Shown here one piece after another: positions 11,731 through 64,000 of a DNA stretch of 64,000 bases (positions are counted from its first letter, which is position 1; each line of letters begins with the position of its first letter). The position numbers were made by a program, and so were the translations under genes. Source of the DNA: a virus; the IMG/VR virus record IMGVR_UViG_3300037342_000011, positions 7,466 to 71,465 of that record; one strand, given 5' to 3'. The notes under the pieces were generated by a model. It had not been told where the DNA came from. It made no database searches and saw nothing but the letters and a program-made list of their open reading frames with translations.

Positions 11731-13043
11731 CGTTGTGCCGACCACCGCATAACTTCGTCAGAAAACACCAAAGGCTTCCGAGCGTGCGAACTGTGCATCA
11801 CAGCTAAAGCTAACGAACACACGCAATCGTCGTGGAAGCCTTCAGGGGCCGAGTATCTCACGCCAGTCCTCGTGTATTCATATTCAAAGTCCTCAAGCTC
11901 GCTTCGAATAACCCCGTCAGGGAACTTGATCGTCGATTGCTGGATAGCGACCGCCAGGCCTTCCATCAGCTTCTGCTTGGACGGGGAGGAGAAGTTGTAC
12001 CCCTCGAACTTTGACCCAAGGTTCTTTTGTAGCATCTCCAATATCGGGTCGCCGACGCCCGTGCTGTCCACTAACGCAGCGACCCGACCTGTCGTGGTCG
12101 CTATTCTGTTCATCGTCGCGTCCCAAGGCAGCTGGAACCGCTCGTGCCTGCACACCCGGCCCGCGTCGTCGAGCGCGGTGCCAACCGTCCAGTCAACGTG
12201 CTTGGCGAGGTCCCACCCCCAAACCCTCGGAGCGGCGCTTGACATCGGCGCGATACACTGAGCGATCGCCTTAAGCCCGAACGGGTTGCCACCGTCGTCG
12301 CTGGGTTCGGCGAGATACAGTTCGCGAAACACCTGCTCAGGCAAATCGCGTTTAGCTTCTTGAATCTCGGCGTCAGCGAGCACTCCAGCGGCAACCGCAT
12401 CGCTCGCCAATATCTTGAAATACGCCATACCCGCTTCGCCGTGTTCGGCCTTGCGAGCGAGAGCGTAAAACCAATTCTTGCGGCCTTTGACGTTTCCGAT
12501 AAAACGACAAGGTCCGCGCGTAGCGGTAAGTGTAGAACGTATAGCGTGCCAGCTTTCCTCACGCATACGAGAGGCTTCGTCGATCACGGCGGCATAAACG
12601 TCTTCGCCGTAAAGATTGTCCGGCTTCTCGGCGGACTTGAACCAAATGATCGCGCCGCTAACGACGACCTTTAATATCAGGTCACCTTCATTTGCGTCAA
12701 ACGTACCAACGGGGTACGCGCGCTTCATACGGGTGAAAGCTATTTCGGCTTGTTTGTAGACCGGGGCAACCCACCAAAAGTTATTGCCGTCTTTCGCAAA
12801 CAACGCTTGTTCGAACAACCAAGCAATACACCCAACCGTCTTGCCAGTTTTAGTAGCGGCCTCAATAAAAGAAAACCGAGCAATGGCCCCGGAAGAATCG
12901 CGCGGATAAAATATCGCGTGTTCTTGCTTTGGATAAAGCAAAGGCCGCGTGTAGTTTATATGGACGACCTCAGCATAGTCAGCTCTCGCTGCGCTGGAGG
13001 GTGACGACGTTTCCGTCGGTCCGGTATGTTCGTTCGGTGTCAT
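11727..13043 (-). CDS. terL: Terminase large subunit
   Basis: Walker A TKTGKT, Walker B VIDEAS, nuclease GWDLAK, VDSTGVGD, HDDCVCSLALA. Confidence 0.93.
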   Translation of the reverse strand: MTPNEHTGPTETSSPSSAARADYAEVVHINYTRPLLYPKQEHAIFYPRDSSGAIARFSFIEAATKTGKTVGCIAWLFEQALFAKDGNNFWWVAPVYKQAEIAFTRMKRAYPVGTFDANEGDLILKVVVSGAIIWFKSAEKPDNLYGEDVYAAVIDEASRMREESWHAIRSTLTATRGPCRFIGNVKGRKNWFYALARKAEHGEAGMAYFKILASDAVAAGVLADAEIQEAKRDLPEQVFRELYLAEPSDDGGNPFGLKAIAQCIAPMSSAAPRVWGWDLAKHVDWTVGTALDDAGRVCRHERFQLPWDATMNRIATTTGRVAALVDSTGVGDPILEMLQKNLGSKFEGYNFSSPSKQKLMEGLAVAIQQSTIKFPDGVIRSELEDFEYEYTRTGVRYSAPEGFHDDCVCSLALAVMHSSHARKPLVFSDEVMRWSAQR

Positions 13044-19440: not shown

Positions 19441-21041
19441 CCCACCTTCTCCTCTACCCGTTCAAATCTTCGCGCCACCACCCTAAAATACTTGCCGTCA
19501 GGCTCCACCTGTATTTGCTTGGCCTCTTTTATTTCCCCGCGCCGCTTCAAAGCCTCGTCAACCGTTGCGGGGATAGCCCCTTGGCCTACCCGCTTCCACC
19601 AATGTTCGGCCCGTTGCCGCATAAGCCCGTGGTGCTGGAAGCCGAGCCACTCACGATGGGTTGTAAAACCACAGTGGTACTCCGCCCTAAGCGACGGCGG
19701 GCTGCCTTGTTTTTCGTGTCTATAGTAAAGCACGCGGTCAACGTCTACCCAAACCGCTTTGCCTTTGGAGAGGATTGACGTAGTCGCGTCTGCCAACGCT
19801 TCGTGCTTGTGGAGTTCGTCGCGTTCTGGCCAAAGGAAGCCGCAGTCCGGACATTCCCTTGCGGCTAACGCTACTAGCGAATGGCACTTAGGACATTCTT
19901 TGGCCAATGGTTCGGCCTTTTCGTCTTTTTCTTTACCGCTTGATTTTGCCGTTATCATATCAATAGGACCGTGAGTTTTTACAAGTCCTGCAAAATCAAG
20001 AATCAATGCGTTTTCTTTGCCTGGCGCTTTCCGCAACGCTCTTCCAGCTTGCTGAAGATAAAGTCCGGCGCTGGCCGTTGGCCTAAGTAATGCCACCAAG
20101 TCTACGGCTGGCACGTTGAAGCCAGTCGCAACTACATTCACGGACGTTAAACATCTTATATGGCCCTGACGAAACGATTGGATGATTCGATCACGTTCGT
20201 TCTTTGGGGTTTCGCCAGTCACCATCTCGCAACTAAAACCTAACGCACGGATGGCGTCTCGTACATGTTCGGCGTGTTTTACGCCGGCACAAAACGCGAG
20301 CCAACTTTTTCTGTTCTGACCGTATTCAGCAATTTCCTTCACGGCGGTCCGCACGAGCCAATCTTTATCGACTGCTATTTCGAGTTGGCCGGGGATATAT
20401 TCGCCACCTCGTTTGCCAACTCCGCTAACATCTAAAACAGTCGTGGTGGCTTTGGAAACAAGCGGGCAGAGGTAGCCTTGATCAATCAGATCAGAAACGT
20501 TCGCTTCATAGACAATTTTATCAAACAATCTGTCCTTGCCACGGTCAAGCCTCCCGCTATCCATACGCCAAGGGCTGGCCGAAAGCCCAACCATTCGCAT
20601 GTCTGGTGTTTCTTCTTTGAGTGCGGTTATGAATTTTCCATAAGTCGTTTGATTGTTTTTTGAGACAAGATGAACTTCATCAATCAAAAGAATATCAAAG
20701 CCGCCAATCAGCCTTGTTTTATTCCATACTGATTGTATCCCGGCGATTAGAATTTGTGTGCGCGTATCGCGCTTTGAAAGTCCTGCGCTAAAAAGACCAG
20801 CCGGAGCGTTTGGCCACAGTTTTATTAGTTCTTGATAGTTCTGAAGCAAGAGTTCACGAATGTGACTGACAACACAAATGCGCAACGTGGGATATTGACC
20901 TATTATTTCTTGACAAATCGCGGCAAGCACCAAACTTTTCCCAGCCCCAGTCGGAAGAACGATCAAACCGTGACCACCACCGCCATTCCAATAGGCGCGG
21001 AGGGCGTCGATGCTGGCGCGTTGATAATTTCTAAGTTGCAT
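19437..21041 (-). CDS. Superfamily 2 DEAD/H helicase (RadD/YejH-like) with Zn ribbon
   Basis: LRNYQ, PTGAGKS, DEVH, SAS, TGFNVP, QQAGRALR, CPKC...CPDC. Confidence 0.92.
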   Translation of the reverse strand: MQLRNYQRASIDALRAYWNGGGGHGLIVLPTGAGKSLVLAAICQEIIGQYPTLRICVVSHIRELLLQNYQELIKLWPNAPAGLFSAGLSKRDTRTQILIAGIQSVWNKTRLIGGFDILLIDEVHLVSKNNQTTYGKFITALKEETPDMRMVGLSASPWRMDSGRLDRGKDRLFDKIVYEANVSDLIDQGYLCPLVSKATTTVLDVSGVGKRGGEYIPGQLEIAVDKDWLVRTAVKEIAEYGQNRKSWLAFCAGVKHAEHVRDAIRALGFSCEMVTGETPKNERDRIIQSFRQGHIRCLTSVNVVATGFNVPAVDLVALLRPTASAGLYLQQAGRALRKAPGKENALILDFAGLVKTHGPIDMITAKSSGKEKDEKAEPLAKECPKCHSLVALAARECPDCGFLWPERDELHKHEALADATTSILSKGKAVWVDVDRVLYYRHEKQGSPPSLRAEYHCGFTTHREWLGFQHHGLMRQRAEHWWKRVGQGAIPATVDEALKRRGEIKEAKQIQVEPDGKYFRVVARRFERVEEKVG

Positions 21042-21666
21042 GTTTAAGCCGCCACTTAGAAATAATTTCTTCAAAGGATTTTCCCTTTCTAATCAAAAAT
21101 CCAATATATACTTTTGAGTAGGCCACTTCTGGGTGCTGTGTCATAAATGCAAACAACCCATCTTTATTATATTTATCTGCTTTGTTCTTTTGCTGCTCTG
21201 AAGATGTGGCCCATCTACAATTTGATGGTTCGTAATTTCCATCGTTATTAATGCGGTCTAGTGTTTTACCTAGCGGCCTTTCGCCCATGTCTCGTAAAAA
21301 ATTAGGAAATTCTTGCCAAGCATCGCAAACGGTTATTTCGCGCTTAACGTAATGCTCAAAGTTTGTACCGCTTTTAGCGGCGCACCTATGTTTCATGGCG
21401 CTCCATGAGGTCCATGTTGGCGATTGATTTCCTCGCCCAGCCCGGTTGTGTCCATGGACAGTGTTGCGCGCTATGGCTTTTGCTCTATTTACTTCTCTAA
21501 TAAGGCAACCGCATGAACGAGTGCGTCGAAGACCTGATGTTGAAACTACTGTTTTATTTCCGCAGTCACAAACGCACAACCATTGTTTTTTACGTTTTTT
21601 GGTTGGAGCGACAGCAACAACTGTCAAGCGTCCTATTTTTTGATTAAGTAAATTTACAATTTTCAT
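21031..21666 (-). CDS. HNH homing endonuclease
   Basis: GRLTV...CVCDCG...SCGC...WSAMKHRC...TLDRINNDGNYEPSNCRWAT. Confidence 0.85.
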   Translation of the reverse strand: MKIVNLLNQKIGRLTVVAVAPTKKRKKQWLCVCDCGNKTVVSTSGLRRTRSCGCLIREVNRAKAIARNTVHGHNRAGRGNQSPTWTSWSAMKHRCAAKSGTNFEHYVKREITVCDAWQEFPNFLRDMGERPLGKTLDRINNDGNYEPSNCRWATSSEQQKNKADKYNKDGLFAFMTQHPEVAYSKVYIGFLIRKGKSFEEIISKWRLKHAT

Positions 21667-21815
21667 CTTCTTTGCCCCTCCATGGGCTGTTGATGCGCGC
21701 CGAGTAATTTCCAATGGAGTGGGAAAACGGGGATCAAGCCGCTGTCCTCGGCGCGCAGTTAGTATAGCTTGCGTTTGCATTTAGGCAAGTGCTTTGCTTT
21801 TATAGACGCTATTGT

Positions 21816-22229: not shown

Positions 22230-23186
22230 TCATATGCCTTCTCCCGCCCCATCCACCCACTCCGTTCCATCTTTCATCTTATACTTAACCCAACGCTCTT
22301 TTTCGTTGGCGTCAATTTGTTCTCCGTTAACGAGACTCGGCAAAAATAAATGCTTACCGCAGCCCTTCTGTTGCTCGTCATAACTCAATTCCCGGTCAAA
22401 CAGCGTACACCTAACCGTTGCCCCCGACTCCAAGCTTGCCGAAATGCAAGTGCGGCAATTTCTTCTAGCCCATTCGCCTTCATGGCAAACCCCCCTAGAA
22501 GGGCACCATGAGCAGGGGAAGGCAGCTTTTGCCGTAGGGTCCTCGAACAACTTAGGCGGCGCCGCGTCTTGCTTGACGATATATTCCACCTTGGCTTCGG
22601 CTCTAAGGCAAAACGCCGCGTCATACTCCACTCTCTCACAATAAAGTTCATCGGTGTTTTTGTTGACCGCAACATAAAGCGCCCTAGTCAAGTTTTCGGC
22701 GTGCATATACATTTGGCATTGGGCGTAGTGGTCGGGCTTGCTGGCTTGCAGTTTTTTCTTCAAAAGGTCTTTGAAACTTTTGTCATTGTGGCTTTTACAT
22801 TCAACCACATGCACCGCAACAGGAGCCTCGGGAATGTTGGTTGCGCGACCGTCTAATTTGCCGCGCAACCATCCATCCGCCAGCGAGACGCGAAACTGCT
22901 TGCCGGTAGCCGGGTCTAGGCGTTCAACAACTATGCCTGCTCTTTCCAAATCGTTTAATAGCCGGTCCTCTTCAATGTTGCCGGTATCAAAGCGGCGCTG
23001 TTTTTGGCCGGTGATAAATTCGGGAGGGTTGGCCCATCTAAGAGTGTACCAAGTTTTCCGATCACAGGGTTCGGCTACCAGCGACACGGGGATGCCGCGT
23101 GAGTCTGAATGGGATTTGGTATTGGATTCGTAGCCTTCCCAAATAGCTAGGACGGTATGGGAAATAGGTTCTGGAAGTTCGGGCAT
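22230..23186 (-). CDS. Cas4-like PD-(D/E)XK exonuclease
   Basis: PCDRKTWY, GKLDG, VECKS, HYAQCQMYM, CSWCPSRGVC. Confidence 0.88.
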   Translation of the reverse strand: MPELPEPISHTVLAIWEGYESNTKSHSDSRGIPVSLVAEPCDRKTWYTLRWANPPEFITGQKQRRFDTGNIEEDRLLNDLERAGIVVERLDPATGKQFRVSLADGWLRGKLDGRATNIPEAPVAVHVVECKSHNDKSFKDLLKKKLQASKPDHYAQCQMYMHAENLTRALYVAVNKNTDELYCERVEYDAAFCLRAEAKVEYIVKQDAAPPKLFEDPTAKAAFPCSWCPSRGVCHEGEWARRNCRTCISASLESGATVRCTLFDRELSYDEQQKGCGKHLFLPSLVNGEQIDANEKERWVKYKMKDGTEWVDGAGEGI

Positions 23187-24223: not shown

Positions 24224-25051
24224 TTAAGCGGCTTTGGTTTTTGCAGCGGTCTTGGTTGGTTCCGGCTTGGCTTCTTCAACAGCTTTGCCAAGCAAATACG
24301 GCGCAAGAGCTTCGTAGCCTTTACCGCGCTCGTATAGAATCTTTTCCGGCAAATCGTAACGGTTGCCTGCCGCGTAAGCTGGGCGCGAACTTGTATTCAT
24401 CCAAACATTGCGACCGCCATCGGCACGCGCCCTGCTTTTGCTAAAACCCTGTTCCTCGGTCTTGATAGTAACATCAGGCTTTAACAAAATAATTGCATCG
24501 CTTTCGCGCTTTAGATAGTCACGCGCCTTTTCGTGTAAATCAATTTCGTAGCGGCTGTACGCGACGGTTTCCGGATCGTCGAACCGTTCGATCTTGGAAT
24601 GGGCGATCAAGATTACACCCATGCCCCTATCGCGGCGGAGGGCCATGATGCCTTCCATAAATTCTTGCCAGACAATAAGCGCGTACTGATATCCTTTTCC
24701 GTAGCCAAAGTCTTCTATCCTGTTTTTCTTGACGCCCTTGTCGTCGCCGCGCTGGCCGGTCTCGGCCCAGATTAAAGGCTGTAACGCGGTTACGCTATCG
24801 ACCACCACGTTTTGAAATTTATGTTCTTCTTGATAAAGCGCGGTAATTGCGTCCATCACCTCGGCGTAGCTTTGCAACTTGCCAAAGCTATCGAACTTGA
24901 GCTTGCCAGCGCCTTCTTCGGTTTGCAGAAAAACCGCGTTTGGAAATTCGGCGGCTAACGTGGTCTTACCGCCCTTTTCAGGGCCGTAAATTAGCAAGCG
25001 CGGTGGCTCTATAACCCCGGCCTTGCGTAGTGACTTCATCGATATAGCCAT
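24224..25051 (-). CDS. AAA_24/Sak4-like ATPase recombinase
   Basis: LIYGPEKGGKTT, VVDSVT, GYGKGY, ILIAHS. Confidence 0.88.
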   Translation of the reverse strand: MAISMKSLRKAGVIEPPRLLIYGPEKGGKTTLAAEFPNAVFLQTEEGAGKLKFDSFGKLQSYAEVMDAITALYQEEHKFQNVVVDSVTALQPLIWAETGQRGDDKGVKKNRIEDFGYGKGYQYALIVWQEFMEGIMALRRDRGMGVILIAHSKIERFDDPETVAYSRYEIDLHEKARDYLKRESDAIILLKPDVTIKTEEQGFSKSRARADGGRNVWMNTSSRPAYAAGNRYDLPEKILYERGKGYEALAPYLLGKAVEEAKPEPTKTAAKTKAA

Positions 25052-27546: not shown

Positions 27547-28533
27547 TTAGGTAAGCTCCTGTGTTTCGTAAACGTTCAGCTTGATTTCGTCTGTTCGCTT
27601 GTCTACGTCGTCTATGTTTCTTATGGCTTGCTTGAAGTAGCTCGTTTTCAATTCCATGCCAAGCGCGCGACGACCATTGCGTAACGCGCTATAAACCTCG
27701 GAGCCAACGCCCATGAACGGCGTCAATATAGTCTCTCCTGGGTTACTCCATAAGGTAACGCACCGTTCAATCACGTCTAGCTGCAATGGATGGACGTGCT
27801 TTTCGTCGTCCTGATCCTTGGATTGTTTGAACGGCAGAACATTTTCAATCCGAACATCGTCCCAAAAGGCGCTGGCGTATTGTCGCCAGATCCAATGAGA
27901 ATACCTATTTTCAATTTGATTGCCGGTATAGCCTCGAAATTTCAGCAACTCGTTTGGGATCTGCCGCGAACCTGCATACCGGTCTAATCCTGTCGGGTGC
28001 GCGATTGGAATTTGATTTTCACCCTTGCGGCGAAAAACCAAAAGATAGTCAGCCGAAGCAACGCTGCAACGCGAACTATCGTCCACGATACTTTTATGAG
28101 CTAGATTTTTTGCCATCGTGCGATTGCGAACGGCAAGCGGTTCTTTCCAGACTACGTACCGAGCAATATACCGAAATCCTTCTTTTTCATGTAGCCGTAT
28201 AATGTCGCCGGGAAAATCGATTAAGTGGTCCGTCCCGGAATTGCCGCTAGGCACGTCCATACAATGAACGGCAGTCATGCGCCCTGGTAGCGTGAGACGA
28301 AATATCTGTTGAATTACAAAAGAATAGTGATCGAAAAACTGATTGTAATTTATGCAGTTCGACAAATCGCGGTCGTTACTGGAATAATTGTAAAGTGCGC
28401 CGCCAGACGTGGCGAACGGCGGACTGTAAATTGACATGTGAACCGACTCGTCAGGCAATGACTGCATGACTTCAATACAATCCCCATTATAGATTGCGTA
28501 CTTGTCGGATATTTTTTGACTGATTACAGCCAT
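27547..28533 (-). CDS. DNA N4-C/N6-A methyltransferase
   Basis: GDC...SPPF motif IV; HPLQ...TPFMGVGSE motif I. Confidence 0.9.
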   Translation of the reverse strand: MAVISQKISDKYAIYNGDCIEVMQSLPDESVHMSIYSPPFATSGGALYNYSSNDRDLSNCINYNQFFDHYSFVIQQIFRLTLPGRMTAVHCMDVPSGNSGTDHLIDFPGDIIRLHEKEGFRYIARYVVWKEPLAVRNRTMAKNLAHKSIVDDSSRCSVASADYLLVFRRKGENQIPIAHPTGLDRYAGSRQIPNELLKFRGYTGNQIENRYSHWIWRQYASAFWDDVRIENVLPFKQSKDQDDEKHVHPLQLDVIERCVTLWSNPGETILTPFMGVGSEVYSALRNGRRALGMELKTSYFKQAIRNIDDVDKRTDEIKLNVYETQELT

Positions 28534-30349: not shown

Positions 30350-30490
30350 TCAAAACGTAACGCAGGAAGTTAAAACACCAGCTGCAAGCCAGTAGATTGA
30401 TCGGCGCCAGTCTTGTTGGAATGCGTAGACAACGCCAGCCCCAACATCGAGAACAATAAGAACGACTGGAAACACCTTTGAATAATTCAC
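30350..30490 (-). CDS. 46-aa two-TM membrane protein
   Basis: MNYSKVFPVVLIVLDVGAGVVYAFQQDWRRSIYWLAAGVLTSCVTF; GTGA overlap. Confidence 0.65.
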   Translation of the reverse strand: MNYSKVFPVVLIVLDVGAGVVYAFQQDWRRSIYWLAAGVLTSCVTF

Positions 30491-31197
30491 CAATCGTTCT
30501 CAGAATTTGGAGCGGCCCCGACGGGTTGCACGTCGCTCGCGCCTCTTGGAAGAGGTTCGTCCAATGGACGGGCCGCGTTAGGTTTAGGGAAGGGCAGTAT
30601 TTCCCACTTATACCGTCGGCATAAAGGTTTTAGGTTTCGACGCAACGGCTTAACATAGAGATATTTCGGGAGTGCCTCAACAATTGACCACTTAGGAAAC
30701 AACGCCAGTATTTTTTCTGCCTTGTGTGTACCATAACTGGCATTAATACTGCGCGCGTGTAGAAACGCCCCGCTTTCAGTCTTATAGCCAGCAACTTTGT
30801 CACCCGGTACGCCTTTCTCGCCGCAATAGTAAAATCCAGACGCTTGATAGATACCGCCGTGGTGATTCTCAGCGCTATCCGCGTAACTTACGCAAACTGC
30901 ATAAGGCGTATTAGCTCGTAGCCATCGCAGCGACCAGCAAACAAACTTAGAAAGTGGCTCTTTGTAAGAAGGCAACCGCACTAACCGGGTTAGCTCAATT
31001 GCCCCGTCCGTCAGATATTTATTGACTGGGTTGCTGTAAATAGCCACAGCTAGAGGCTCCCCATAGTCGCCAAACAATCCACCTTCAGCCCTTGCGGCAA
31101 AGATACATGAGCAAGAGCCAGGCATTCTGCCGGAGTAGTGATGGTCACGGATTAGTGGCCACACTTCCTCTGGTTGTGCTGAACAGAATGAGATCAC
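30487..31197 (-). CDS. Mom-like adenine-modification protein (GNAT fold)
   Basis: HHYSG...ELTRLV...VSYAD...HHGGIYQASGF. Confidence 0.8.
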   Translation of the reverse strand: MISFCSAQPEEVWPLIRDHHYSGRMPGSCSCIFAARAEGGLFGDYGEPLAVAIYSNPVNKYLTDGAIELTRLVRLPSYKEPLSKFVCWSLRWLRANTPYAVCVSYADSAENHHGGIYQASGFYYCGEKGVPGDKVAGYKTESGAFLHARSINASYGTHKAEKILALFPKWSIVEALPKYLYVKPLRRNLKPLCRRYKWEILPFPKPNAARPLDEPLPRGASDVQPVGAAPNSENDW

Positions 31198-36327: not shown

Positions 36328-36582
36328 ATGATCGACATGCAGAAATCGTACTGGCAATCAATGGTGTGTGATGGACCTCGTAGCCACGAGGCAATCAAAA
36401 GCTGGCTATCTCCTATGTGCGCCGACATGACGCCATTGAAGGCGGAAATCCTATGCGACATTGCGACTGACAAAGAGAAAAAGTTGCGAGTTTTGATGCA
36501 GGACAAGGATGGGAAGAAGTTATTGGCAACGCGCACCTTTGGCAGGAAGTTTTCCATCACGCTTAAGCCTGCCAATGTTTGA
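36328..36582 (+). CDS. Hypothetical protein
   Basis: 84 aa co-oriented ORF. Confidence 0.5.
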   Translation: MIDMQKSYWQSMVCDGPRSHEAIKSWLSPMCADMTPLKAEILCDIATDKEKKLRVLMQDKDGKKLLATRTFGRKFSITLKPANV

Positions 36583-36616
36583 GCCTTCATAAGCCAAGAC
36601 CGACAGGAGTTCTAAA

Positions 36617-36802
36617 ATGGCTACCAAGATATTTTGCGACCAATGTGGGACCGAAGGTGCATCTAGCTATTCGGTAGAATTTCGCGGCAACTTGGGAAAC
36701 AAGGAACAGCGAGATTTTAGCTTTCAGGCGTGCAACTCGTGTTGGGAGCGAGCCTCCACGGCTATCAAGGCAATCGTGCCTGCCGTTGCCATTAATGATT
36801 GA
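36617..36802 (+). CDS. Small Zn-binding protein
   Basis: ACAGGAG RBS; CDQCG...CNSC. Confidence 0.65.
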   Translation: MATKIFCDQCGTEGASSYSVEFRGNLGNKEQRDFSFQACNSCWERASTAIKAIVPAVAIND

Positions 36803-36823
36803 TAAGCGGCGGCTCCTCTACAT

Positions 36824-37015
36824 TCAACGGCGACGACCATCGTCGCCAATTCGTTTGATGATGCCAGCGCGCAAAAGGTCGTCCAGTTGCCGCGACAAAA
36901 GATATTCGCAGACATCGTTTTTGGTCGCGCCGTAGCCTAGCCCGACGAGGCTTTCCAATTCCTCCATTCGAGCCGTGCCAGCGTGGAGTTCAATTTTGTT
37001 GAACTGATAATTCAT
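36824..37015 (-). CDS. Ribbon-helix-helix-like small protein
   Basis: AGAGGAG SD; LESLVGLGYGATKNDVCEYLL. Confidence 0.6.
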   Translation of the reverse strand: MNYQFNKIELHAGTARMEELESLVGLGYGATKNDVCEYLLSRQLDDLLRAGIIKRIGDDGRRR

Positions 37016-37031
37016 GTCGGCTCCTCTTCCT

Positions 37032-37841
37032 TCAAGCCGCTGCGGCGAATAGCGCCGGTTCGGCTGCATCAAAAATCACAGCAACGCGATTGCTCACCTT
37101 GTTGAACGGCGGCATGTCAAGCACCTTCATATCCATCCGCATGACCGGGCCGGTCGGCCGGTGTTTCTCAGGAATGCGCGCCAGCTCTTCAGCGCTGAGT
37201 TCCCGTTCGGTCACGTCGCGGCGAATGAATGACCCGCGCCGGAACGAGGCCGGGAAGGATTCAAAGTCAATGCCGAGGTCGGCCAGCATGGCGAGCATCG
37301 CCTTCTGGTCTTGGCCGAACAGCGCCTTGTGTGAAAACTTACTCTGCGCGACCATGCTGATGGCGTTCTTCCTCGCGTCCATCGCGCGCCAGAGGAAGGC
37401 ATTGGCCGCCTCGTCCTTAGACGGAAGCTGGAACACCCGGCAGTCGAAGTGAGGCAGACGGCCGGCGAACTCGGCCGGGATCACGGTCGCGAACTTTGCA
37501 GCCGCCATAGACGCCAGCACGCTCACCATCTTCTGTACCTTGCCAGAGAAGATCACGTCGGACTCCGGCTTGTCGGCCAGCCACACAAGGCTGATCTCGT
37601 CAGACTGCGTGTAGCCCATCCGAGCGTCTGTCTTGTGGGCGAGATACTTGGTCGTCTCCACCATCGCCGCCGTCATCCTGGCGTCAAACGGACGTTCCAT
37701 GCCGCGCGTGAACGCCGAGAAGGCGCGCCCGTCAATCCTGGCGTATATCGGCAGCATTGGATCGAGCTTACGCGCCGTCTCGACGGCTTCGTAAGCCTTC
37801 ATCCGCGCGCCGAACTCGTCAGTGTCTTTCAGGCGGCTCAC
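37032..37841 (-). CDS. Thg1-like protein (tRNA-His guanylyltransferase / 3'-5' polymerase family)
   Basis: RMKAYE, ARIDGRAFSAFT, YTQSDEISL, FDCRVF, WRAMDARKN; GAGGAG SD before GTG 37841. Confidence 0.92.
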   Translation of the reverse strand: MSRLKDTDEFGARMKAYEAVETARKLDPMLPIYARIDGRAFSAFTRGMERPFDARMTAAMVETTKYLAHKTDARMGYTQSDEISLVWLADKPESDVIFSGKVQKMVSVLASMAAAKFATVIPAEFAGRLPHFDCRVFQLPSKDEAANAFLWRAMDARKNAISMVAQSKFSHKALFGQDQKAMLAMLADLGIDFESFPASFRRGSFIRRDVTERELSAEELARIPEKHRPTGPVMRMDMKVLDMPPFNKVSNRVAVIFDAAEPALFAAAA

Positions 37842-37851
37842 GCTGCGCTCC

Positions 37852-38382
37852 TCAAGTGACAACGGGTTCAAGGATAAAGCAGGCAATGTGGCGTCCGGTC
37901 CCTTTGCCTTGGGATCCATCCTCGGTCGCGTGCCAGCGCACGTCACCAAGATTGCGGACCTTCGTGCCGATGGCCGACAAAATCATAAGCACCCACTTAT
38001 CGACCGGATAGACCAGCACGACGCGCTTGCCTTTTTGCTGCTCGATGATCGCTTTGCGCACCCAAGCAGTCGGTCCTTTTTTCTTGCCTTGGTGGATTAT
38101 GGATCCGAAGGGCGGGTTGACGTAGCTCGACTTTCCCCACTCGCAGGTCAGGCCGTCGAATCCGGGCGGCAGCGGGTGCGGGCAAGGATCGAAGTCAAAA
38201 TGAAACTCAGCGTCGAGCGCGGCATAGAGCGCGGGCGGCGTGATCCAGTAGTGCTTCCCATCGTCGCCGTTGCCGACATGAAACTTATTCTCGGCTGGCG
38301 CGAGTTGCGATTGATGGCGCGGCGGATCCACTTCCCGCCCGTCGCCGTACAAATCGCCGTAAGTGCCACCACGCGCAACCAT
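37852..38382 (-). CDS. Phage DNA N6-adenine methyltransferase (Dam, T1/HP1-type)
   Basis: WITPP...EFHFDFDPC...DGL..EW...YVNPPF. Confidence 0.8.
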   Translation of the reverse strand: MVARGGTYGDLYGDGREVDPPRHQSQLAPAENKFHVGNGDDGKHYWITPPALYAALDAEFHFDFDPCPHPLPPGFDGLTCEWGKSSYVNPPFGSIIHQGKKKGPTAWVRKAIIEQQKGKRVVLVYPVDKWVLMILSAIGTKVRNLGDVRWHATEDGSQGKGTGRHIACFILEPVVT

Positions 38383-38394
38383 TCCAAATCGCTC

Positions 38395-38571
38395 CTATTT
38401 CGCCATTATGTGTAAGTGAACGGTGCTGAGAAACCGACCAAGGACATTAAGCGCCAGTTTCTTTAATTCGTAGTCGCTTGTCTCATGGGCAATTTCTAGC
38501 AGCCGGAATTGCTCATGGAGCGTGAGTTTATCCGGCGCTGGTTCAATGTAGCCCGCAATCATTGCAGACAT
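38395..38571 (-). CDS. Hypothetical 58-aa cassette gene
   Basis: TAGGAGGAG SD; ends AAATAGGAGCGA. Confidence 0.6.
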   Translation of the reverse strand: MSAMIAGYIEPAPDKLTLHEQFRLLEIAHETSDYELKKLALNVLGRFLSTVHLHIMAK

Positions 38572-38583
38572 GCCAAACTCCTC

Positions 38584-38853
38584 CTAATCCTTTACGTTGC
38601 ATTCACGACCAGCAGCGCGAAGCTCGGCGCACATCTGCTGCTCAAGTTTAGTTTCCCACCCGCCATATTCATCTTTATTGACGACGCACCGCGCCAGAAC
38701 TTTGTGCCTAGCCGAAACCGCGTCAGCGGCCCACTTGCAAGAGTCAAACGTCTGATAGCCGCCGATCTTAAGCCAGTCGCTATCAGCGCAGCTGACCTTA
38801 TTCCCGGCGTAGGTCGAAACTGGCAGACACATCAAAACCGCTAAGACGTACAT
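38584..38853 (-). CDS. Secreted Cys-rich protein
   Basis: AAGGAG SD; hydrophobic N-terminus; 6 Cys. Confidence 0.6.
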   Translation of the reverse strand: MYVLAVLMCLPVSTYAGNKVSCADSDWLKIGGYQTFDSCKWAADAVSARHKVLARCVVNKDEYGGWETKLEQQMCAELRAAGRECNVKD

Positions 38854-38905
38854 TTTCGGCTCCTTTGTTGTTAGCCCCCGCCCGCTTTCGAGAGCGGGGG
38901 CGCTT

Positions 38906-38993
38906 GTCATGCAAGACGAGATTCGAACTCGTTATCTAAGGCGCGTCTTGCGACGTTGGCCCACGCTGTACCCGCCAAGCTCCATTGCATGAC
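38906..38993 (-). ncRNA. tRNA-like RNA lacking a normal anticodon loop
   Basis: 9-bp closing stem GTCATGCAA/TTGCATGAC; T-arm ACGAG-TTCGAAT-CTCGT; D-arm GCT-TGGCGGGTAC-AGC; anticodon arm capped by CGTC-GCAA-GACG. Confidence 0.55.
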
Positions 38994-39006
38994 TTAACTC
39001 CTGTTC

Positions 39007-39219
39007 CTACAGACCGCGAGCGCGGTCAATGATCCTGTCGGCCCAAGCCGTAGCCGGAACCGATTTGCTTTCCGTCGCCTCGTTCCATGCCGCGTCAACT
39101 ATGCGCCGCAAGAAAACTTGCTCCCGGCACTCGCTCAAAGCGTAGCGATGAGCGCATGGCACAGGCGGCTTGTCGTCGGGGTGACAAGTGCATGGTCGAG
39201 ATTTATCTGTCCCTGCCAC
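39007..39219 (-). CDS. Cys/His-rich hypothetical protein
   Basis: TAGGAG SD; CTCHPDD...C...C. Confidence 0.65.
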   Translation of the reverse strand: MAGTDKSRPCTCHPDDKPPVPCAHRYALSECREQVFLRRIVDAAWNEATESKSVPATAWADRIIDRARGL

Positions 39220-39420
39220 GGTCGCTCCTATTTCACGTTGTCTGATTGACGGACAACTTCCATCGCCAGCATTAGATCGGCGGCTAGTTCCTCCGCCTCC
39301 CTGCCGCGTTGCTGGACTTCCTCGTAATGACTAGCCAAGTTTTTCTTTGCGACCGCCGAAAAGATCACGGCATGTTTGGCAAGCCTGTCGAACAAAGTAT
39401 CAGCCACGAAATTCTCCTAA
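39219..39420. repeat. 202-bp perfect direct repeat, copy 1
   Basis: Identical to 40289-40490 by direct comparison. Confidence 0.97.
39228..39407 (-). CDS. 59-aa helical protein (duplicated cassette, copy 1)
   Basis: TAGGAG-N6-GTG; MADTLFDRLAKHAVIF...QSDNVK. Confidence 0.65.
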   Translation of the reverse strand: MADTLFDRLAKHAVIFSAVAKKNLASHYEEVQQRGREAEELAADLMLAMEVVRQSDNVK

Positions 39421-39632
39421 TTATCGTTGAAGTCGTCGCACACAACCCAACCCTTATTCGGATTGTCGTGCGGCTTGATTGCGCCAGCAGCGATCATTTC
39501 ATCTAATTCCGCATCACGGTAGCGACCCGCCTCATAGGCAGCCCGCGCGCCCTCATACATGAAGCCGCCGCGCGTGGGTGCCATGCGGCGCATGTAATCG
39601 AGTTGGACCTTTGCCTTTTTGGATAGCACCAA
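39417..39632 (-). CDS. Hypothetical cassette gene
   Basis: AGAGGAG SD; ends TAGGAG. Confidence 0.6.
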   Translation of the reverse strand: MVLSKKAKVQLDYMRRMAPTRGGFMYEGARAAYEAGRYRDAELDEMIAAGAIKPHDNPNKGWVVCDDFNDN

Positions 39633-39647
39633 AATTCTCCTCTATAT

Positions 39648-39896
39648 TCAAGCCGAGCCAGCAGACTTGCCGCTGACCTCGGCGATTGCCTGACGATTGC
39701 CAAGCTCGACATTCTTGGCGACGACTTCCATCGCCTCACTTGGCGTCACGGCGCGCTGGTCTTGCAGCGCAACCAACTTGCCGAGCATGTTTGCCGCGAC
39801 CGCCAGCAATTCAAGCGATGACAGTTTCGGGGCGTGCTTGTTCACCAGCGCGCAAAGGTCTTGGTAGGCGACTTCATGCTCGGGGCGCGATCTCAT
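39648..39896 (-). CDS. Hypothetical protein
   Basis: ELLAVAANMLGKLVALQDQR; ATGA overlap. Confidence 0.65.
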   Translation of the reverse strand: MRSRPEHEVAYQDLCALVNKHAPKLSSLELLAVAANMLGKLVALQDQRAVTPSEAMEVVAKNVELGNRQAIAEVSGKSAGSA

Positions 39897-40288
39897 GTTC
39901 CAACCTTCTCGTTGCTTCCGTCCCATACGAACTCGCCGTCCGCACCTACCGAAAAGTGTGTGCCGCAGCCGCAGCAGAATGTCCCGCTGTAGAAATGAGG
40001 ATCACGCGCGTAAGTCTCGGCAAGCGATTGGCCCATTGTCGTCAGCGTTCCGCATTTCGTGTGAACGTAACTGCGGCGCACTGGACGCACGAAGCCTTTG
40101 GCGCGTTCCTCCTTCGCCAGCACCACATAGCCCTCTTGCTGGCCGTTCTCTTTCAGGCGGCGATGCTCCGGGTAAACTTGCGTATCATCCGTCAGCGTCG
40201 TGCGCGGCGCTGGCGAGCATTGGCACTTATAGCGGTCAAGGCCGCACGTCTCGCAGCGCCAATCATCGATGCCAAACCGCTTATTCAT
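39893..40288 (-). CDS. Conserved Zn-binding hypothetical protein
   Basis: GFVRPVRRSYVH..CG...AETYARDP.FY..TFCCGC. Confidence 0.75.
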   Translation of the reverse strand: MNKRFGIDDWRCETCGLDRYKCQCSPAPRTTLTDDTQVYPEHRRLKENGQQEGYVVLAKEERAKGFVRPVRRSYVHTKCGTLTTMGQSLAETYARDPHFYSGTFCCGCGTHFSVGADGEFVWDGSNEKVGT

Positions 40289-40490
40289 CGGTCGCTCCTA
40301 TTTCACGTTGTCTGATTGACGGACAACTTCCATCGCCAGCATTAGATCGGCGGCTAGTTCCTCCGCCTCCCTGCCGCGTTGCTGGACTTCCTCGTAATGA
40401 CTAGCCAAGTTTTTCTTTGCGACCGCCGAAAAGATCACGGCATGTTTGGCAAGCCTGTCGAACAAAGTATCAGCCACGAAATTCTCCTAA
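40289..40490. repeat. 202-bp perfect direct repeat, copy 2
   Basis: Identical to 39219-39420. Confidence 0.97.
40298..40477 (-). CDS. 59-aa helical protein (duplicated cassette, copy 2)
   Basis: Identical to 39228-39407. Confidence 0.65.
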   Translation of the reverse strand: MADTLFDRLAKHAVIFSAVAKKNLASHYEEVQQRGREAEELAADLMLAMEVVRQSDNVK

Positions 40491-41359
40491 GTTGTTTTCC
40501 GGCGTTTCAGACCGGATATGTATTTGGTGATCTCAGGCGCTAGAGTAAACCATTCGCCAGAAAGACGCAGCTTGGCGAACTTCTTATGCAGAACCTTCTC
40601 GCGCATCCTGCCGCCATCCGTGATCGCGAGCATTTCCATCTTTGCGTGATTTGCCGTTCGCATGTCGGCCATCCGCTTATGCGGCGAGTGGCTGTGACCG
40701 ATCTTAACGGTGTTGCCGTTGCGGATAAAATAGACGTACTGCTTCCGCTGCCGGAATGGCTTTTGCTTCCCGATCTTGGCAACCTCAGAAGGGTCTAGCG
40801 CCGGTTTTTCAGGGATGCCGAAGGTGCCGTATAGGTAGGTCTTGCTAACCCGGATACCGAGGGCGTGGATGGCCGCAATGGCTTCTGTGCGGGTCTGATA
40901 GCGGCGGCTCGTCCAAATCCGCTCCACGGCCTCTTTCTGCTCCTTGGTAAGCTCCCTAGAGGGGCGTCCTGACTTGGAGCGCCCGGCCTGACCGCGCCCG
41001 CTGTTGGCGATCATTTCAGTGGCCCGAATTACGGCCTTGGTGAATCCGGCTTGACCGGATTGCAAGCCAGAACTGCGTTCGCGAACTATGCCGCCAGCAG
41101 CCTTGATGGCCTCGATCCTTTCGGCCAGTGAGCGACGGCGCTTGGCGGGCTTGCCGAGAACCGGGGCCAGCAAAAACAACTCGTCCACTTGAACGATGCT
41201 GCGACGATCACGGCGCACGGAAGTAATCACGGCGTCGATGATCGCGCCGCTTTTGTCCTCAACATATATCTCGCCGTCGCTTAGGCGTTCCATCTGCCCT
41301 GCTGCCGCAAAGTGCGGGTGTGGGTTGACATAGCTGCGAATGTCTAGGTTTTCTGTCAT
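40487..41359 (-). CDS. Degenerate serine-resolvase-fold + HTH + T5orf172/GIY-YIG-like domain fusion
   Basis: Y...Q...IYVEDKSG...IVQVDELFLLA...IKAAGGIVRE...GRP..LTKEQ...VSKTYLY; C-terminal YVYFI...VKIGHS...R...E..LH..F...GEWF. Confidence 0.65.
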   Translation of the reverse strand: MTENLDIRSYVNPHPHFAAAGQMERLSDGEIYVEDKSGAIIDAVITSVRRDRRSIVQVDELFLLAPVLGKPAKRRRSLAERIEAIKAAGGIVRERSSGLQSGQAGFTKAVIRATEMIANSGRGQAGRSKSGRPSRELTKEQKEAVERIWTSRRYQTRTEAIAAIHALGIRVSKTYLYGTFGIPEKPALDPSEVAKIGKQKPFRQRKQYVYFIRNGNTVKIGHSHSPHKRMADMRTANHAKMEMLAITDGGRMREKVLHKKFAKLRLSGEWFTLAPEITKYISGLKRRKTT

Positions 41360-41416
41360 TTCCGGAAATAGCATACACACTTACTTGACAGCTTGTCAAG
41401 GCTGTGCTTATATGAT
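41358..41416. promoter_or_regulatory. Overlapping divergent promoters with palindromes
   Basis: CTTGACA-GCT-TGTCAAG gives TTGACA on both strands; minus -10 TATGCT; palindrome ATTTCCGGAAAT at 41358-41369. Confidence 0.6.
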
Positions 41417-41435
41417 GGCAACAGGGAGAGACATC

Positions 41436-41630
41436 ATGACCACCTACAGCGAACGGTTCGACGGAGCTACCGCCAAGAATGGGGACCGCTGCAACGGTTT
41501 TATCACCGAGGAAGATGGGCGCAGTTTCTACCATTACGGTGAGGGGTCGTCGGAGTACCAATCGGCAGAAATGCCGTGTATCCGCGTGGATATAACGAAC
41601 GCCACCCACTACCACGTAGTCGTCGGCTAG
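41436..41630 (+). CDS. Hypothetical protein
   Basis: AGGGAG SD; 64 aa. Confidence 0.6.
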   Translation: MTTYSERFDGATAKNGDRCNGFITEEDGRSFYHYGEGSSEYQSAEMPCIRVDITNATHYHVVVG

Positions 41631-41641
41631 GGACAAAAACG

Positions 41642-41812
41642 ATGCCAAGCGCCTTCGACGGATACCCACCCGACAAACCGATCATGGTGAAGTGCCGCGA
41701 TTGCCGTGGGTCTGGAAATGGGCCTTCGGCTAAGACGCGGGAAGGCGATATGTGCGACTACGAATGCCCGACCTGTAAAGGTGCGGGTCAAGTTTCATCC
41801 GACGAACAATAA
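41642..41812 (+). CDS. DnaJ-type Zn-finger mini-protein
   Basis: CRDCRGSG...CPTCKGAG. Confidence 0.6.
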   Translation: MPSAFDGYPPDKPIMVKCRDCRGSGNGPSAKTREGDMCDYECPTCKGAGQVSSDEQ

Positions 41813-61795: not shown

Positions 61796-62521
61796 TTATT
61801 GAACTGGGTAGATGATATCCGCCGGAATGAGCGTTTGCTCGATCACGTCGGCAAATTCTTGCGGCACGGTGACGGTGGCGTTCACTTGAAGCGTTGCTTC
61901 CAAAACCCAACGCCATTCAATTTGGGATTGGTCGTTTAAGAAAGGAATCTGCTTTGGGTCGTCGGCGTAGAACGGCGATACGTTAGGGTTGAGCGCCTTG
62001 AAGGCGTCGTAAGCGTACTCGTCGCGCATTAAAGTTGAGATGGTCTGCGCGTTGTCGGCGCTGTTGGGACCGTGAACGTCAAGTTGAACTACGAACTTCG
62101 TCGGCTGTAGCAAGTTTTGAACACCGCACGCCATCTTTTCGCTCGACACGGTTTGCGTCGCGCTAACGACGTAAACGCCGTCACCGCCGGGAGCGCCAGA
62201 GGTCTGGCTTACGATAGTCGTCCCTGCCGATACGTTAGTGCCAAACAAAAAGTTTCCGATAGTGATTGAGCCGAACTTGATGGCGCTAACTGTCATATTG
62301 ACGCCGCTAATCGACGCGGTGAAAACGCAATCAACGTAGGTGTCTACGTTCGTCTCGATGCGCTCGCGTCTAATCGGCGTCATCATCACGAAGTCTTGAG
62401 CGGCTGGCTCAGGTACCCGGTTTATTTGAGCCAGAAAAACATCTGTGCTAGACGGTAATATGTTAATTAGAAAAGCCCGCAGCGCCGTGATGACGACGGT
62501 TTGGGTAGGGTTAGGCACCAT
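61796..62521 (-). CDS. Tail terminator/neck protein with inserted beta module
   Basis: QINRVPEP...QLDVHGP...TLMRD...P.YADDP.Q...RW; precedes sheath. Confidence 0.78.
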   Translation of the reverse strand: MVPNPTQTVVITALRAFLINILPSSTDVFLAQINRVPEPAAQDFVMMTPIRRERIETNVDTYVDCVFTASISGVNMTVSAIKFGSITIGNFLFGTNVSAGTTIVSQTSGAPGGDGVYVVSATQTVSSEKMACGVQNLLQPTKFVVQLDVHGPNSADNAQTISTLMRDEYAYDAFKALNPNVSPFYADDPKQIPFLNDQSQIEWRWVLEATLQVNATVTVPQEFADVIEQTLIPADIIYPVQ

Positions 62522-64000
62522 TAGATCACAGGCAACAACGGTGACGCGACAACGGTGAACGAAGTGTCCTGCGATGTGGCGATCACCGCGCCAATCCCTT
62601 GCCACTTATAGGTCCACGCACCAACTTGGTCGGGCTCGAACGAATAGGTATAGACCCCCGTTGATGGGTTAAGAATAGCCCCGCCCGTTATCGTTGTTAG
62701 CGAGCTATCCGGCGCTTTGATGATCAAGCTAACGACGGTCGGGACCGCCGGGGAGAAGTTCGAGTCGGTGGACTCTACGAACTGGGCGGTCAGAATAACC
62801 TCAGTGTTGACTTGGTAGGCCGAGCCCATCCGATAATTCCCCTGAACGAACGTGATGACCGCAATGGCCGCCTGATCCAGTACCGTTACCAGCCATACTG
62901 CAACATCAGACGCAACCACGTCCCCGATGATACTGGGGCCGGTGAAGGTTTGTACAATCTCGGATTGGCTTCCGGTAGCTGATAGAAACGACGCAAACCA
63001 CTCTAACTGGCCGCCAGCCGCCGACGTTACGCGGTTGATTTGGATTGTAACCTCGGTTTGCGCGATCGTATCAAACCGGGCTGCCGATAGTATTTCCGCC
63101 AAACCGACAGCGTTACCTTTAACGCTCAGTACGAATTCGCTCTCGGACAATGCGTCAAGACGAACCGACACAATGTTTTCAGCAGCAACCAGGGCGTTAG
63201 AACTGACCCCTGTTGTCACTTCATCTAACGTAGGGCGATCAGCACGGACACTTAATCCAGTTTCAGTCTGAACCAGCAAATCTGTCTGCGCATTCGCGGT
63301 GTTCTCGACCTTTATTGTAACGTCGGTTCTGAGCGCAGCGGTGGCTTCTAGTTGTGAAACGCCATCGGCGGCTACTGCGAGCAGCCCCAATTCTTCAGTT
63401 TGAACAACTGTGTCTTTGCGTACTGACGGCGTTTGTTCGCTTACGGTGGGCGAGTCGGAGCGTTGTAAGGCTGTAGATTCTACATTACCGAGCGAGTCGG
63501 TTCGCTGCGAGATAGTAGATTCTGTATTTGCGGGCGAGTCGGTTCGTTGAAGGGACACTATTTCAAGTGGCGCAGAGGCATCCGCCGTTGCAACAACCGC
63601 GTCTAGTTTCTCAATCTGCGTGGCGGTATCGCCCCGCACCGATGAACTAATCTCTTCGACAACGTTCGTATTCGATTGAAGCGCAGCGGACATCTCTAGT
63701 TGTGCGGCTGTGTTACCGCTTACCGATAGCCCCAGCTCGACGTTGGTGACCGCGTCGCGACGAACAGTGCTTCCAATTTCGGAAGCCGCCGAGATGTCTG
63801 TGCGCTGTGCTGCGAGCAATTCGACCGCAGCTAAACTATCTGTTCGAACGCCGCCGAGAACTTCAATCGCGCCGACCGCGTCGCGACGAACAGTGCTTCC
63901 AATTTCGGAAGCCGCCGAGATGTCTGTGCGCTGTGCTGCGAGCAATTCGACCGCAGCTAAACTATCTGTTCGAACGCCGCCGAGAACTTCAATCGCGCCG
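62521..64000 (-). CDS. Long 14-residue-repeat virion protein with C-terminal Ig-like domain; 5' end outside window
   Basis: Periodic xRxDxxxxxExxxx; frame open to window edge; C-terminal TGVYTY...VGAWTYKWQG. Confidence 0.75.
   Translation of the reverse strand, partial: GAIEVLGGVRTDSLAAVELLAAQRTDISAASEIGSTVRRDAVGAIEVLGGVRTDSLAAVELLAAQRTDISAASEIGSTVRRDAVTNVELGLSVSGNTAAQLEMSAALQSNTNVVEEISSSVRGDTATQIEKLDAVVATADASAPLEIVSLQRTDSPANTESTISQRTDSLGNVESTALQRSDSPTVSEQTPSVRKDTVVQTEELGLLAVAADGVSQLEATAALRTDVTIKVENTANAQTDLLVQTETGLSVRADRPTLDEVTTGVSSNALVAAENIVSVRLDALSESEFVLSVKGNAVGLAEILSAARFDTIAQTEVTIQINRVTSAAGGQLEWFASFLSATGSQSEIVQTFTGPSIIGDVVASDVAVWLVTVLDQAAIAVITFVQGNYRMGSAYQVNTEVILTAQFVESTDSNFSPAVPTVVSLIIKAPDSSLTTITGGAILNPSTGVYTYSFEPDQVGAWTYKWQGIGAVIATSQDTSFTVVASPLLPVI
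63748..64000. repeat. 126-bp perfect tandem repeat (at least 2 copies)
   Basis: 63748-63873 equals 63874-63999; 42 aa = 3 x 14-aa units. Confidence 0.95.

Follow-up and report, generated by a model that had tools for sequence, protein, structure and literature searches.

Can a run of small phage genes, joined to one another by almost the same few nucleotides, be a cassette system that exchanges genes at the joint, or is the joint a signal for translation? The question is raised by a 64,000-nucleotide stretch of viral DNA, hereafter the window, which covers positions 7,466 to 71,465 of the IMG/VR record IMGVR_UViG_3300037342_000011. On its minus strand, a gene for a resolvase-like protein (40487-41359), termed the leader here, heads an array of small genes in the same orientation. 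A preliminary description, made from the sequence alone, took this array for an integron-like set of mini-gene cassettes that are added and shuffled by recombination at or near a TAGGAG core, in which the stop codon of one gene is fused to the ribosome-binding site of the next. We found that the density of TAGGAG serving as both in-frame stop and ribosome site is beyond chance, and that the pattern recurs behind relatives of the leader; we found no dedicated integron-like enzyme or site. The array is mostly tight phage gene packing. With slightly better than even confidence, we read it as a translationally coupled early or accessory operon whose stop-in-ribosome-site junction also supplies microhomology by which single genes are gained, lost and duplicated.

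Array layout and junctions

The leader and eleven co-oriented open reading frames (ORFs) form twelve closely packed genes at 36824-41359 on the minus strand, bearing out the roughly eleven genes first counted behind the leader. Intergenic gaps range from -4 to 16 nt at 10 of the 11 junctions. The motifs described for these junctions all proved to be at the reported places on the minus strand: the 13-nt GAAATAGGAGCGA, absent from the rest of the 71,465-bp genome, starts at 40304, 39234 and 38401; the starts of TTAGGAG are 40490, 39420 and 38587, with a further one at 29381; and those of TGAAT[AG]TAGAGGAG are 39650 and 36826. Within 38397-40489, each of the six TAGGAG is the in-frame stop of an ORF that is open for at least 62 codons, with a start codon 4-9 nt past the core. 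In coupled operons, the stop codon lies in or next to the Shine-Dalgarno sequence of the following gene. We read the junction likewise, as a strong ribosome-binding site with the stop of the preceding gene built in. Because every junction is a stop plus a ribosome site 4-9 nt before a start, translation alone explains the existence of the motif.

Such functional TAGGAG junctions number six in 2.1 kb of the array, four of them independent. Across 92 control phage loci (1.02 Mb) their density was 0.016 per kb per strand, with a maximum of two per 2.5 kb among 184 locus-strands, making them about 100-fold commoner in the array. In the rest of the genome, the array strand has none and the opposite strand has one, at 15860. 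The idea that such junctions might be equally common in the core genome, which would have undone the preliminary description, thus finds no support there or in the controls. The wider family of signals is less confined: the coding strand carries 59 AGGAG and the opposite strand 26, and TAAGGAG forms stop-in-ribosome-site junctions at structural genes as well (1281, 2232 and 61798). The genome is also rich in repeated 13-mers, with 228 (many from the terminal repeat) against 29-69 in 10 shuffled versions, so that a lone repeated 13-mer is not beyond chance. We also considered that the TAG stops might be read through to give a polyprotein. The next start is in frame at 5 of the 6 window junctions and at 2 of 5 in a related array (L097, judged by eye), and every junction also has its own ribosome site and start; this idea was dropped.

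Behind the 290-aa leader, the array genes have 59, 131, 82, 71, 59, 70, 89, 58, 176, 269 and 63 codons in order. Pfam or PHROGs matches were obtained for three products, the leader (MUG113/T5orf172), a Dam-type methyltransferase and a Thg1-like tRNA-His guanylyltransferase; 9 of the 12 proteins scanned, from the array and its convergent neighbour with the identical 59-aa product counted once, had no match to either. The features, all on the minus strand, are as follows.

41370-41399: sigma-70-like promoter TTGACA-18-TATGCT, consensus match at 10 of 12 positions
40487-41359: leader gene, 290 aa, whose stop is the TAG of TTAGGAG
40289-40490: copy A of a 202-nt repeat, comprising TTAGGAG (the leader stop), a 59-codon gene at 40298-40477, and TAGGAGCGACCG up to the ATG of the next gene
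39893-40288: gene for a Cys-rich protein of 131 aa, with relatives in 48 viral contigs
39648-39896: 82-aa gene, with an ATGA overlap with the preceding 131-aa gene
39417-39632: 71-aa ORFan, with the upstream junction TGAATATAGAGGAGAATTTTGGTG and its stop in the TAG of TTAGGAG
39219-39420: copy B of the 202-nt repeat, with its 59-codon gene at 39228-39407
39007-39219: 70-aa ORFan; the G of its GTG start is the final base of repeat copy B
38874-38993: tRNA-like remnant (38906-38993) and GC-rich hairpin (38874-38903) inside a 153-nt gap
38584-38853: 89-aa gene, whose stop is the TAG of TTAGGAGG; the N-terminus of its putative product is hydrophobic and looks signal-peptide-like by eye
38395-38571: 58-aa ORFan, with the third TTAGGAG and the third GAAATAGGAGCGA on its flanks
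37852-38382: Dam-type DNA N6-adenine methyltransferase, 176 aa, whose stop is the TGA of TGAGGAG
37032-37841: Thg1-like tRNA-His guanylyltransferase, 269 aa
36824-37015: 63-aa ORFan, the final array gene
36808-36826: terminal "orphan" junction TGAATGTAGAGGAGCCGCC with no gene behind it, adjoined by a convergent plus-strand gene at 36617-36802

The orphan ribosome-binding site reported near 36824 is therefore present, with the gene at 36617-36802 converging on it. The array of the closest relative, L095, closes with a similar orphan junction at about 1470-1495 (stop-ATATAC-AGGAGCGCCGC), again with no gene behind, and the form common to the two is a stop, AT(A/G)TA(C/G) and AGGAGC(C)GCCGC. The orphan junction may be what is left of a lost downstream gene, or else an element conserved at the ends of arrays.

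The 153-nt stretch is the sole long gap in the array. Its tRNA-like remnant has a 9-bp acceptor-like stem and a canonical T-arm (ACGAG-TTCGAAT-CTCGT), and the adjacent 30-nt GC-rich hairpin has no T run. ARAGORN found no tRNA at default settings and a poor 86-nt tRNA-like shape at an 80% threshold; a search of 36500-41700 against Rfam at E <= 1 gave no family, apart from a snoRNA hit at E 0.48 that is attributable to chance. In two relatives (L096 and L097) the arrays include real tRNA-Met and tRNA-Pro genes, and the window array encodes the Thg1-like tRNA enzyme. In the lake-water run X5, read depth peaked (66.6) on the bin 38763-39013, which contains the tRNA-like element.

Related arrays, breakpoints and the 202-nt repeat

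Leader homologues are encoded at seven metagenome loci, six of them distinct (L098 and L099 are the same), giving seven distinct loci together with the window. The leader of L095 is 90% identical to that of the window and the leader of L096 49%; those of L097, L098/L099, L100 and L101 are 40-49% identical and consist of the N-terminal domain only. In 6 of the 7 distinct loci the leader stop is the TAG of TAGGAG, and in L101 a TGA is followed directly by AGGAG. Small same-strand genes are again joined by TAGGAG behind these leaders. All 7 plus-strand TAGGAG of L097 fall within 1.7 kb, and a stretch of 3.7 kb in L096 contains 9 of its 10; the counts of functional TAGGAG junctions behind the leader are 2 in L095, 5 in L096, 6 in L097, 2 in L099 and 1 in L101. 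The cargo genes of different leader loci share no BLASTP match at E 1e-4, and L096 and the window phage have only the leader gene and an endolysin in common. Comparing loci with homologues of the 40487-41359 protein, as the preliminary description had proposed, thus returned the same junctions with unrelated cargo. Because the junctions recur and the cargo shares no match, we take the pattern of a conserved leader, a uniform junction and unrelated cargo to be real. The leader has 12 homologues in a large protein collection, of which P0001, P0003 (on a 52-kb contig) and P0004 are 86-95% identical; none were found in viral contigs, with either the single protein or an alignment as query, or in 185,579 species genomes, and megablast of the region against a phage database found no close relatives, in searches from which records very close to the window may have been screened out.

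The sequence around the core is constrained as well. Positions -3 to -1 are R, M and W, and 18 of 20 junctions have C or G at +6. The extended variants CAGAA-TAGGAG and GAAA-TAGGAG-C recur between unrelated loci nearly as often as within a locus, which a functional constraint fits better than local copying does, although the flanks are slightly more alike within a locus than between loci (permutation p 0.012).

Three breakpoint events are flush with the core at one end. L095 and the window are 88% identical over 926 nt, and their homology stops at 40484, the last base of TTAGGAG; past this point, L095 has a different spacer and a different gene, whose stop is again in TAGGAG. In L096, the AGGAG of one junction is the exact starting point of a 41-nt repeat (8871-8911 and 11870-11910, 98% identical) that extends over the first ten codons of a 78-codon gene; the second of the copies gives a 22-codon stub at the end of the array. 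The third event is a direct repeat of 202 nt in the window, at 39219-39420 and 40289-40490, whose copies are 100% identical and 1,070 nt apart. It holds one 59-codon gene with both its junctions and runs from the TTAGGAG ending the upstream gene to just short of the downstream start codon.

This repeat changes how the motifs are to be counted. Two of the three copies of both main motif forms lie in it and represent a single duplication. Two of the eleven genes first called unrelated are identical, each being in one repeat copy; the 58-codon and 59-codon genes, with no BLASTP alignment between their products at E <= 100, do lack protein similarity, and we dropped the idea that they are diverged paralogues. 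The motif is real and far from random, and its best examples are one duplication. No relatives of the 59-aa gene were found in viral contigs.

Sequencing runs speak to the repeat itself, the region being present in two possible source runs and in X3. The contigs of run X1 break exactly at the repeat ends, with the repeat as a separate 202-nt contig and all four junction contexts present as contig ends, and run X3, from another study, independently gave identical pieces breaking at 39248 and 39391. A search for excised circles, which shuffling cassettes might leave, found neither a circle nor a deletion joint at the repeat in the contigs of four runs, although contigs drop rare variants. The joints listed in the run contigs fall inside the methyltransferase gene and involve contigs of other organisms, and the holes in cover in X3, X5 and X6 carry no information.

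Elsewhere in the region, genes change at their ends without the motif. The nearest relatives of the Thg1-like gene, the 131-aa gene and a 455-aa neighbour occur in otherwise unrelated phage settings, where homology stops at the gene ends, and no TAGGAG motif accompanies these breaks in the relatives of the 131-aa and Thg1 genes. The neighbours of the Thg1 relatives (38 loci), of the 455-aa neighbour (1 locus) and of the portal gene (5 loci, 46-51% identity) include none in common with the region. The 131-aa and 82-aa genes are held as a pair, with the same ATGA overlap in 4 of 48 other phage loci, and the divergence of one relative's contig in run X5 lies 12 nt within the 131-aa gene. Other phages have stereotyped junctions too, of different sequence: in L004, whose Thg1 is 77% identical, the Thg1 gene is flanked by a repeated junction of its own, GTGGAGCCGTAG(N)AATG (5738-5808 and 6560-6700). 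Taken as a whole, the claim that genes are shuffled by recombination at or near TAGGAG is partly supported, by the stereotyped junction that is uncommon elsewhere, its recurrence behind relatives of the leader with unrelated cargo, the L095 break and two repeat ends at the core; it is weakened by the sufficiency of translation to explain the motif and by the right end of the 202-nt repeat, which lies at a start codon.

The leader gene and its phage

The promoter at 41399-41370 is the best of six sigma-70 consensus matches in the region and stands directly before the leader gene; in the same consensus scan, no other match on the array strand fell at a gene junction. A palindrome, TTGACAAGCTGTCAA (41385-41399), overlaps its -35 hexamer, and the promoter with the TTGAC...GTCAA palindrome is kept upstream of the leader gene in L095, L096, L097, L099 and L100. 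Because the leader ATG comes only 10 nt past the -10 hexamer, the gene is probably translated from a leaderless mRNA. The region 41360-41440 is a divergent promoter region kept in the relatives, where a plus-strand ribosome site and an ATG at about 41432 open a 64-codon gene; the layout resembles a two-regulator switch.

The leader protein combines an N-terminal part of about 185 aa, with a serine-recombinase fold and a helix-turn-helix part, and a C-terminal T5orf172/MUG113 domain at residues 208-277 (PF13455, 37 bits against a cut-off of 22.3; PF10544, 31.1 bits against 20). In the predicted structure (pLDDT 79), residues 6-126 superpose on the catalytic domain and E-helix of gamma-delta resolvase. 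VIA-align gave Z 14.5 and an rmsd of 1.8 over 108 aligned residues with 2gm5_C, the top 30 structural matches were all serine recombinases (Z 7.4-14.5), and Foldseek agreed on the fold (E 1e-4). Sequence comparison did not recover this relationship: PF00239 had no match to residues 1-200 even at E 10, searches of PDB sequences with the protein or its profile found nothing significant, and hhalign against PinE gave a non-significant probability of 0.09%. The term resolvase-like, as first applied to this gene, thus holds for the fold and finds no echo in the Pfam resolvase model.

Small serine recombinases such as Tn3/gamma-delta resolvase and Gin/Pin resemble the leader in the superposition of their catalytic domain and E-helix on its N-terminal 126 residues (Z 10.9-14.5), and in the order of the parts, with a helix-turn-helix after the catalytic-type domain. 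They differ at the active site. In PinE, the invariant nucleophile serine is Ser9 of the YVRVS motif, in the loop that follows strand 1. Model residue 6 lies on residue 2 of gamma-delta and model residue 7 on residue 2 of Gin, placing His14 of the leader at the nucleophile position, an assignment by register that may be off by 1-2 residues. This position varies across the leader family (H, Y, E or N), leader residues 10-21 include no Ser or Thr, and Ser9 of the leader is Gly in the homologue P0007. Further differences are LDRLGR in PinE against LLAPVLGK in the leader, in a non-significant alignment, and the extra T5orf172 domain of the leader. The modelled leader protein therefore appears to be without the nucleophile serine, and because of this apparent loss we read it as a DNA-binding regulator and not an active recombinase, probably acting on the conserved promoter palindrome. 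Its C-terminal domain matches phage proteins deposited as GIY-YIG nucleases and the PHROGs "homing endonuclease" families.

The phage itself is a lytic-type, uncultivated, tailed phage. The virus record has 71,465 bp with 107-nt terminal repeats, and 33 of 48 large ORFs match PHROGs families, among them tail sheath, baseplate, tape measure, portal, terminase, primase, helicases and endolysin. In the whole genome, neither the tyrosine integrase family PF00589, which was detected in 14 of 14 control genomes, nor the resolvase family PF00239 had a match at E <= 1, and the phage looks non-integrating. It carries genes for general recombination, a Sak4-like annealing protein (24224-25051) and a Cas4-domain exonuclease (22230-23186). 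At least three genes concern DNA modification, a DNA methyltransferase (27547-28533), a Mom-like modification protein (30487-31197) and the Dam-type methyltransferase of the array (37852-38382). Endonuclease genes comprise a PHROGs "homing endonuclease" between terminase and portal (11053-11745) and an HNH endonuclease (21031-21780). The 107-nt terminal repeat recurs at 63768-63874, 126 nt ahead of the terminal copy. This recurrence, in the stretch 63748-64000, is a 126-nt tandem duplication inside the ORF 62521-63945; because of it, the "direct terminal repeat" of the record may instead belong to a tandem repeat or come from overlap in the assembly.

How the junction may work

For the translationally coupled operon that we favour, one strong host-type promoter with an operator-like palindrome would drive all of the genes. 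The leader, as a resolvase-fold DNA-binding protein without the nucleophile serine, fused to the GIY-YIG-like T5orf172 domain, would be made from a leaderless mRNA, and about eleven small genes, mostly of unknown function, would come behind it. With most stop codons placed within or beside the following gene's AGGAG ribosome-binding site, most compactly as TAGGAG, a terminating ribosome would already be on the next start site, and translation would be coupled along the operon. Coupling of this kind could account for the existence of the junction and its likeness among related phages, and the purine-rich left flank, (C/G)AGAA or GAAA, would fit an extended ribosome-binding sequence. Because the same 6-13 nt stand in direct orientation at nearly every boundary, the junctions would also offer natural microhomology for slippage or short-homology recombination, by which whole genes could be duplicated, lost or replaced with both neighbours intact. 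The 202-nt copy would be one such event.

Among known systems, translationally coupled operons share with the array its same-strand genes, its short gaps (-4 to 16 nt) and an AGGAG placed 4-9 nt ahead of the starts. They differ from it in that one junction form is uniform over 4-7 consecutive unrelated genes in the arrays and is kept behind one leader family in otherwise unrelated phages. Integrons likewise have a conserved gene and promoter at the head, followed by promoterless, unrelated, same-strand small genes that vary between relatives; such a head promoter is found here as the consensus match TTGACA-18-TATGCT. The integron comparison nevertheless fails on the enzyme and the sites. The integron-like cassette system first proposed is not supported: the genome has neither a tyrosine integrase nor a Pfam resolvase, and the leader appears to lack the nucleophile serine. 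The attC sites of integrons are imperfect inverted repeats of tens of bases, and their hairpins would not fit into gaps of -4 to 16 nt; among 26 repeat pairs found, no inverted repeat was associated with a junction. The junction is a translation signal instead, and the contigs hold no excised circles.

The closest published case is that of the promoter-early stem-loop (PeSL) cassettes in the hyperplastic regions of T4-type phages, repeated cassettes that recombine and yield mini-circles (Arbiol et al. 2010, PMC2839356). They too are clusters of small non-essential phage genes of unknown function with a short regulatory motif repeated at the boundaries, where insertions, deletions and replacements between relatives end at the motif; in our case this last likeness covers L095 and the two internal repeats, too small a set to separate it from selection for intact genes. 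The window differs in that its repeat is a translational signal of 6-13 nt (a stop in a ribosome site), not a promoter with a terminator. Its junctions match no stem-loop, promoter or terminator and leave gaps of at most 16 nt at 10 of 11 places, a single promoter serves the whole array, and no mini-circles occur in the contigs. Two routes to phage mosaicism are discussed in another study (PMC3029335): recombination may use short boundary sequences, or it may be illegitimate, with selection filtering the products. The homology of the Thg1-like, 131-aa and 455-aa genes, ending at gene ends, resembles such mosaicism, from which the array differs in the recognisable common boundary sequence at most of its junctions.

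A more active linker is possible, although we find it rather doubtful. Here homology at (A)AATAGGAG(C) would itself move genes, with general recombination of phage or host (the Sak4-like protein, the exonuclease and RecA) pairing the junctions within and between co-infecting relatives, so that genes are inserted, deleted or reordered without a scar while copying keeps the junctions alike, a translational-signal counterpart of PeSL-mediated shuffling. The roughly 100-fold density of junctions over the 92 control loci, the unrelated cargo behind a conserved leader, the three breakpoints flush with the core, the 13-nt GAAATAGGAGCGA shared by the 3' flanks of two non-homologous genes and the slight within-locus likeness of flanks all agree with this, as do the recombining cassettes and the short conserved boundary sequences treated in PMC2839356 and PMC3029335, respectively. 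The core, however, has just 6-13 nt, the flanks are nearly as alike between unrelated loci, which points to function more than to local copying, the right end of the 202-nt repeat is outside the core, relatives of the 131-aa and Thg1 genes break at gene ends without the motif, the X5 contig diverges inside the 131-aa gene, and selection for intact neighbours predicts the same breakpoints. That the leader itself recognises junction DNA through its resolvase fold and GIY-YIG-like T5orf172 domain, and nicks or pairs junctions as a dedicated cassette system, we regard as highly improbable. The leader gene and a TAGGAG array do occur together in 7 of 7 distinct loci, counting the TGA-AGGAG stop of L101, and both the structural match to serine recombinases and the nuclease-like C-terminal matches would suit such an enzyme. 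Yet PF00239 does not match, the nucleophile position holds a variable residue with no Ser or Thr nearby, and 5 of the 7 metagenome loci (4 of the 6 distinct) have the N-terminal domain only, without the nuclease-like domain, and still keep the same arrays. The junction, moreover, lacks dyad symmetry and is locked in strand and frame to translation, and the conserved promoter palindrome is a more obvious helix-turn-helix target. It is very unlikely that the TAGGAG(C) junction is a true recombination linker serviced by the leader protein, as a scarless phage platform for inserting, duplicating and swapping single early genes; if true, such a platform would be mechanistically distinct from integrons and PeSL shuffling.

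The uniform junction might instead act at the RNA level, its GGAG being recognised by a factor specific for this sequence, which would shut off or tune the early genes as a group, much as the T4 endoribonuclease RegB cuts GGAG in early ribosome-binding sites. In the genome the junction type is confined to the array operon, it is kept across phages whose leaders are just 40-50% identical, and the C or G at +6 goes beyond simple anti-Shine-Dalgarno pairing; no candidate nuclease or repressor was found, and we hold the proposal unlikely. That mis-assembled strain variants created the repeat and the recurrence of the motif is scarcely credible. The depth of the repeat contig in X1 is not doubled and repeated 13-mers are common in the genome, but all four junction contexts are contig ends in X1, X3 independently holds the identical pieces, and the pattern recurs in seven metagenome loci (six distinct) while being rare in the controls. 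Several points weigh against the operon with junction microhomology that we favour. On its right side, the 202-nt repeat overshoots the TAGGAG core by 6 nt and ends at the start codon. Two repeat copies per genome are not confirmed by depth, because the 8.21 of the repeat contig is close to that of its single-copy neighbours (6.88, 7.4 and 8.18) and is not their sum; with cover of about 7-fold in X1, the value fits no genome structure consistent with the contig ends. The breakpoint statistics rest on three events, since L095 is the single close relative that can be compared, and gaps of about 10 nt are too short to distinguish a break at the motif from one at the gene boundary. TAGGAG outnumbers TAAGGAG plus TGAGGAG by 20:2 in the arrays and by 35:29 elsewhere (Fisher p 0.002), a bias that compaction alone does not give, as it predicts the other junction types at equal frequency; the special preference for TAG over TAA or TGA is weaker than first thought, since the control loci alone also favour TAGGAG (33 against 25 others, 10 and 15). 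Finally, what the sequences show is the layout, a conserved pattern that is rare elsewhere, and breaks at junctions in three cases; translational coupling, leaderless initiation and a regulatory role of the leader are, like the use of the junctions in recombination, proposed from them.

If the uniform junction both couples translation and serves as an exchange seam, it would help to explain how early genes can be gained and lost without harm to their neighbours. Early phage genes of unknown function turn over fastest in phage genomes and include host-takeover and anti-defence functions. The junction would then also lend itself, as a natural design, to assembling operons without scars; under the ordinary reading, the array is a tidy case of tight gene packing and little more. 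The leader protein represents an undescribed family, in which a serine-recombinase fold appears without the nucleophile serine, and its place at a conserved divergent promoter with a palindrome makes it a candidate for a new type of phage regulator.

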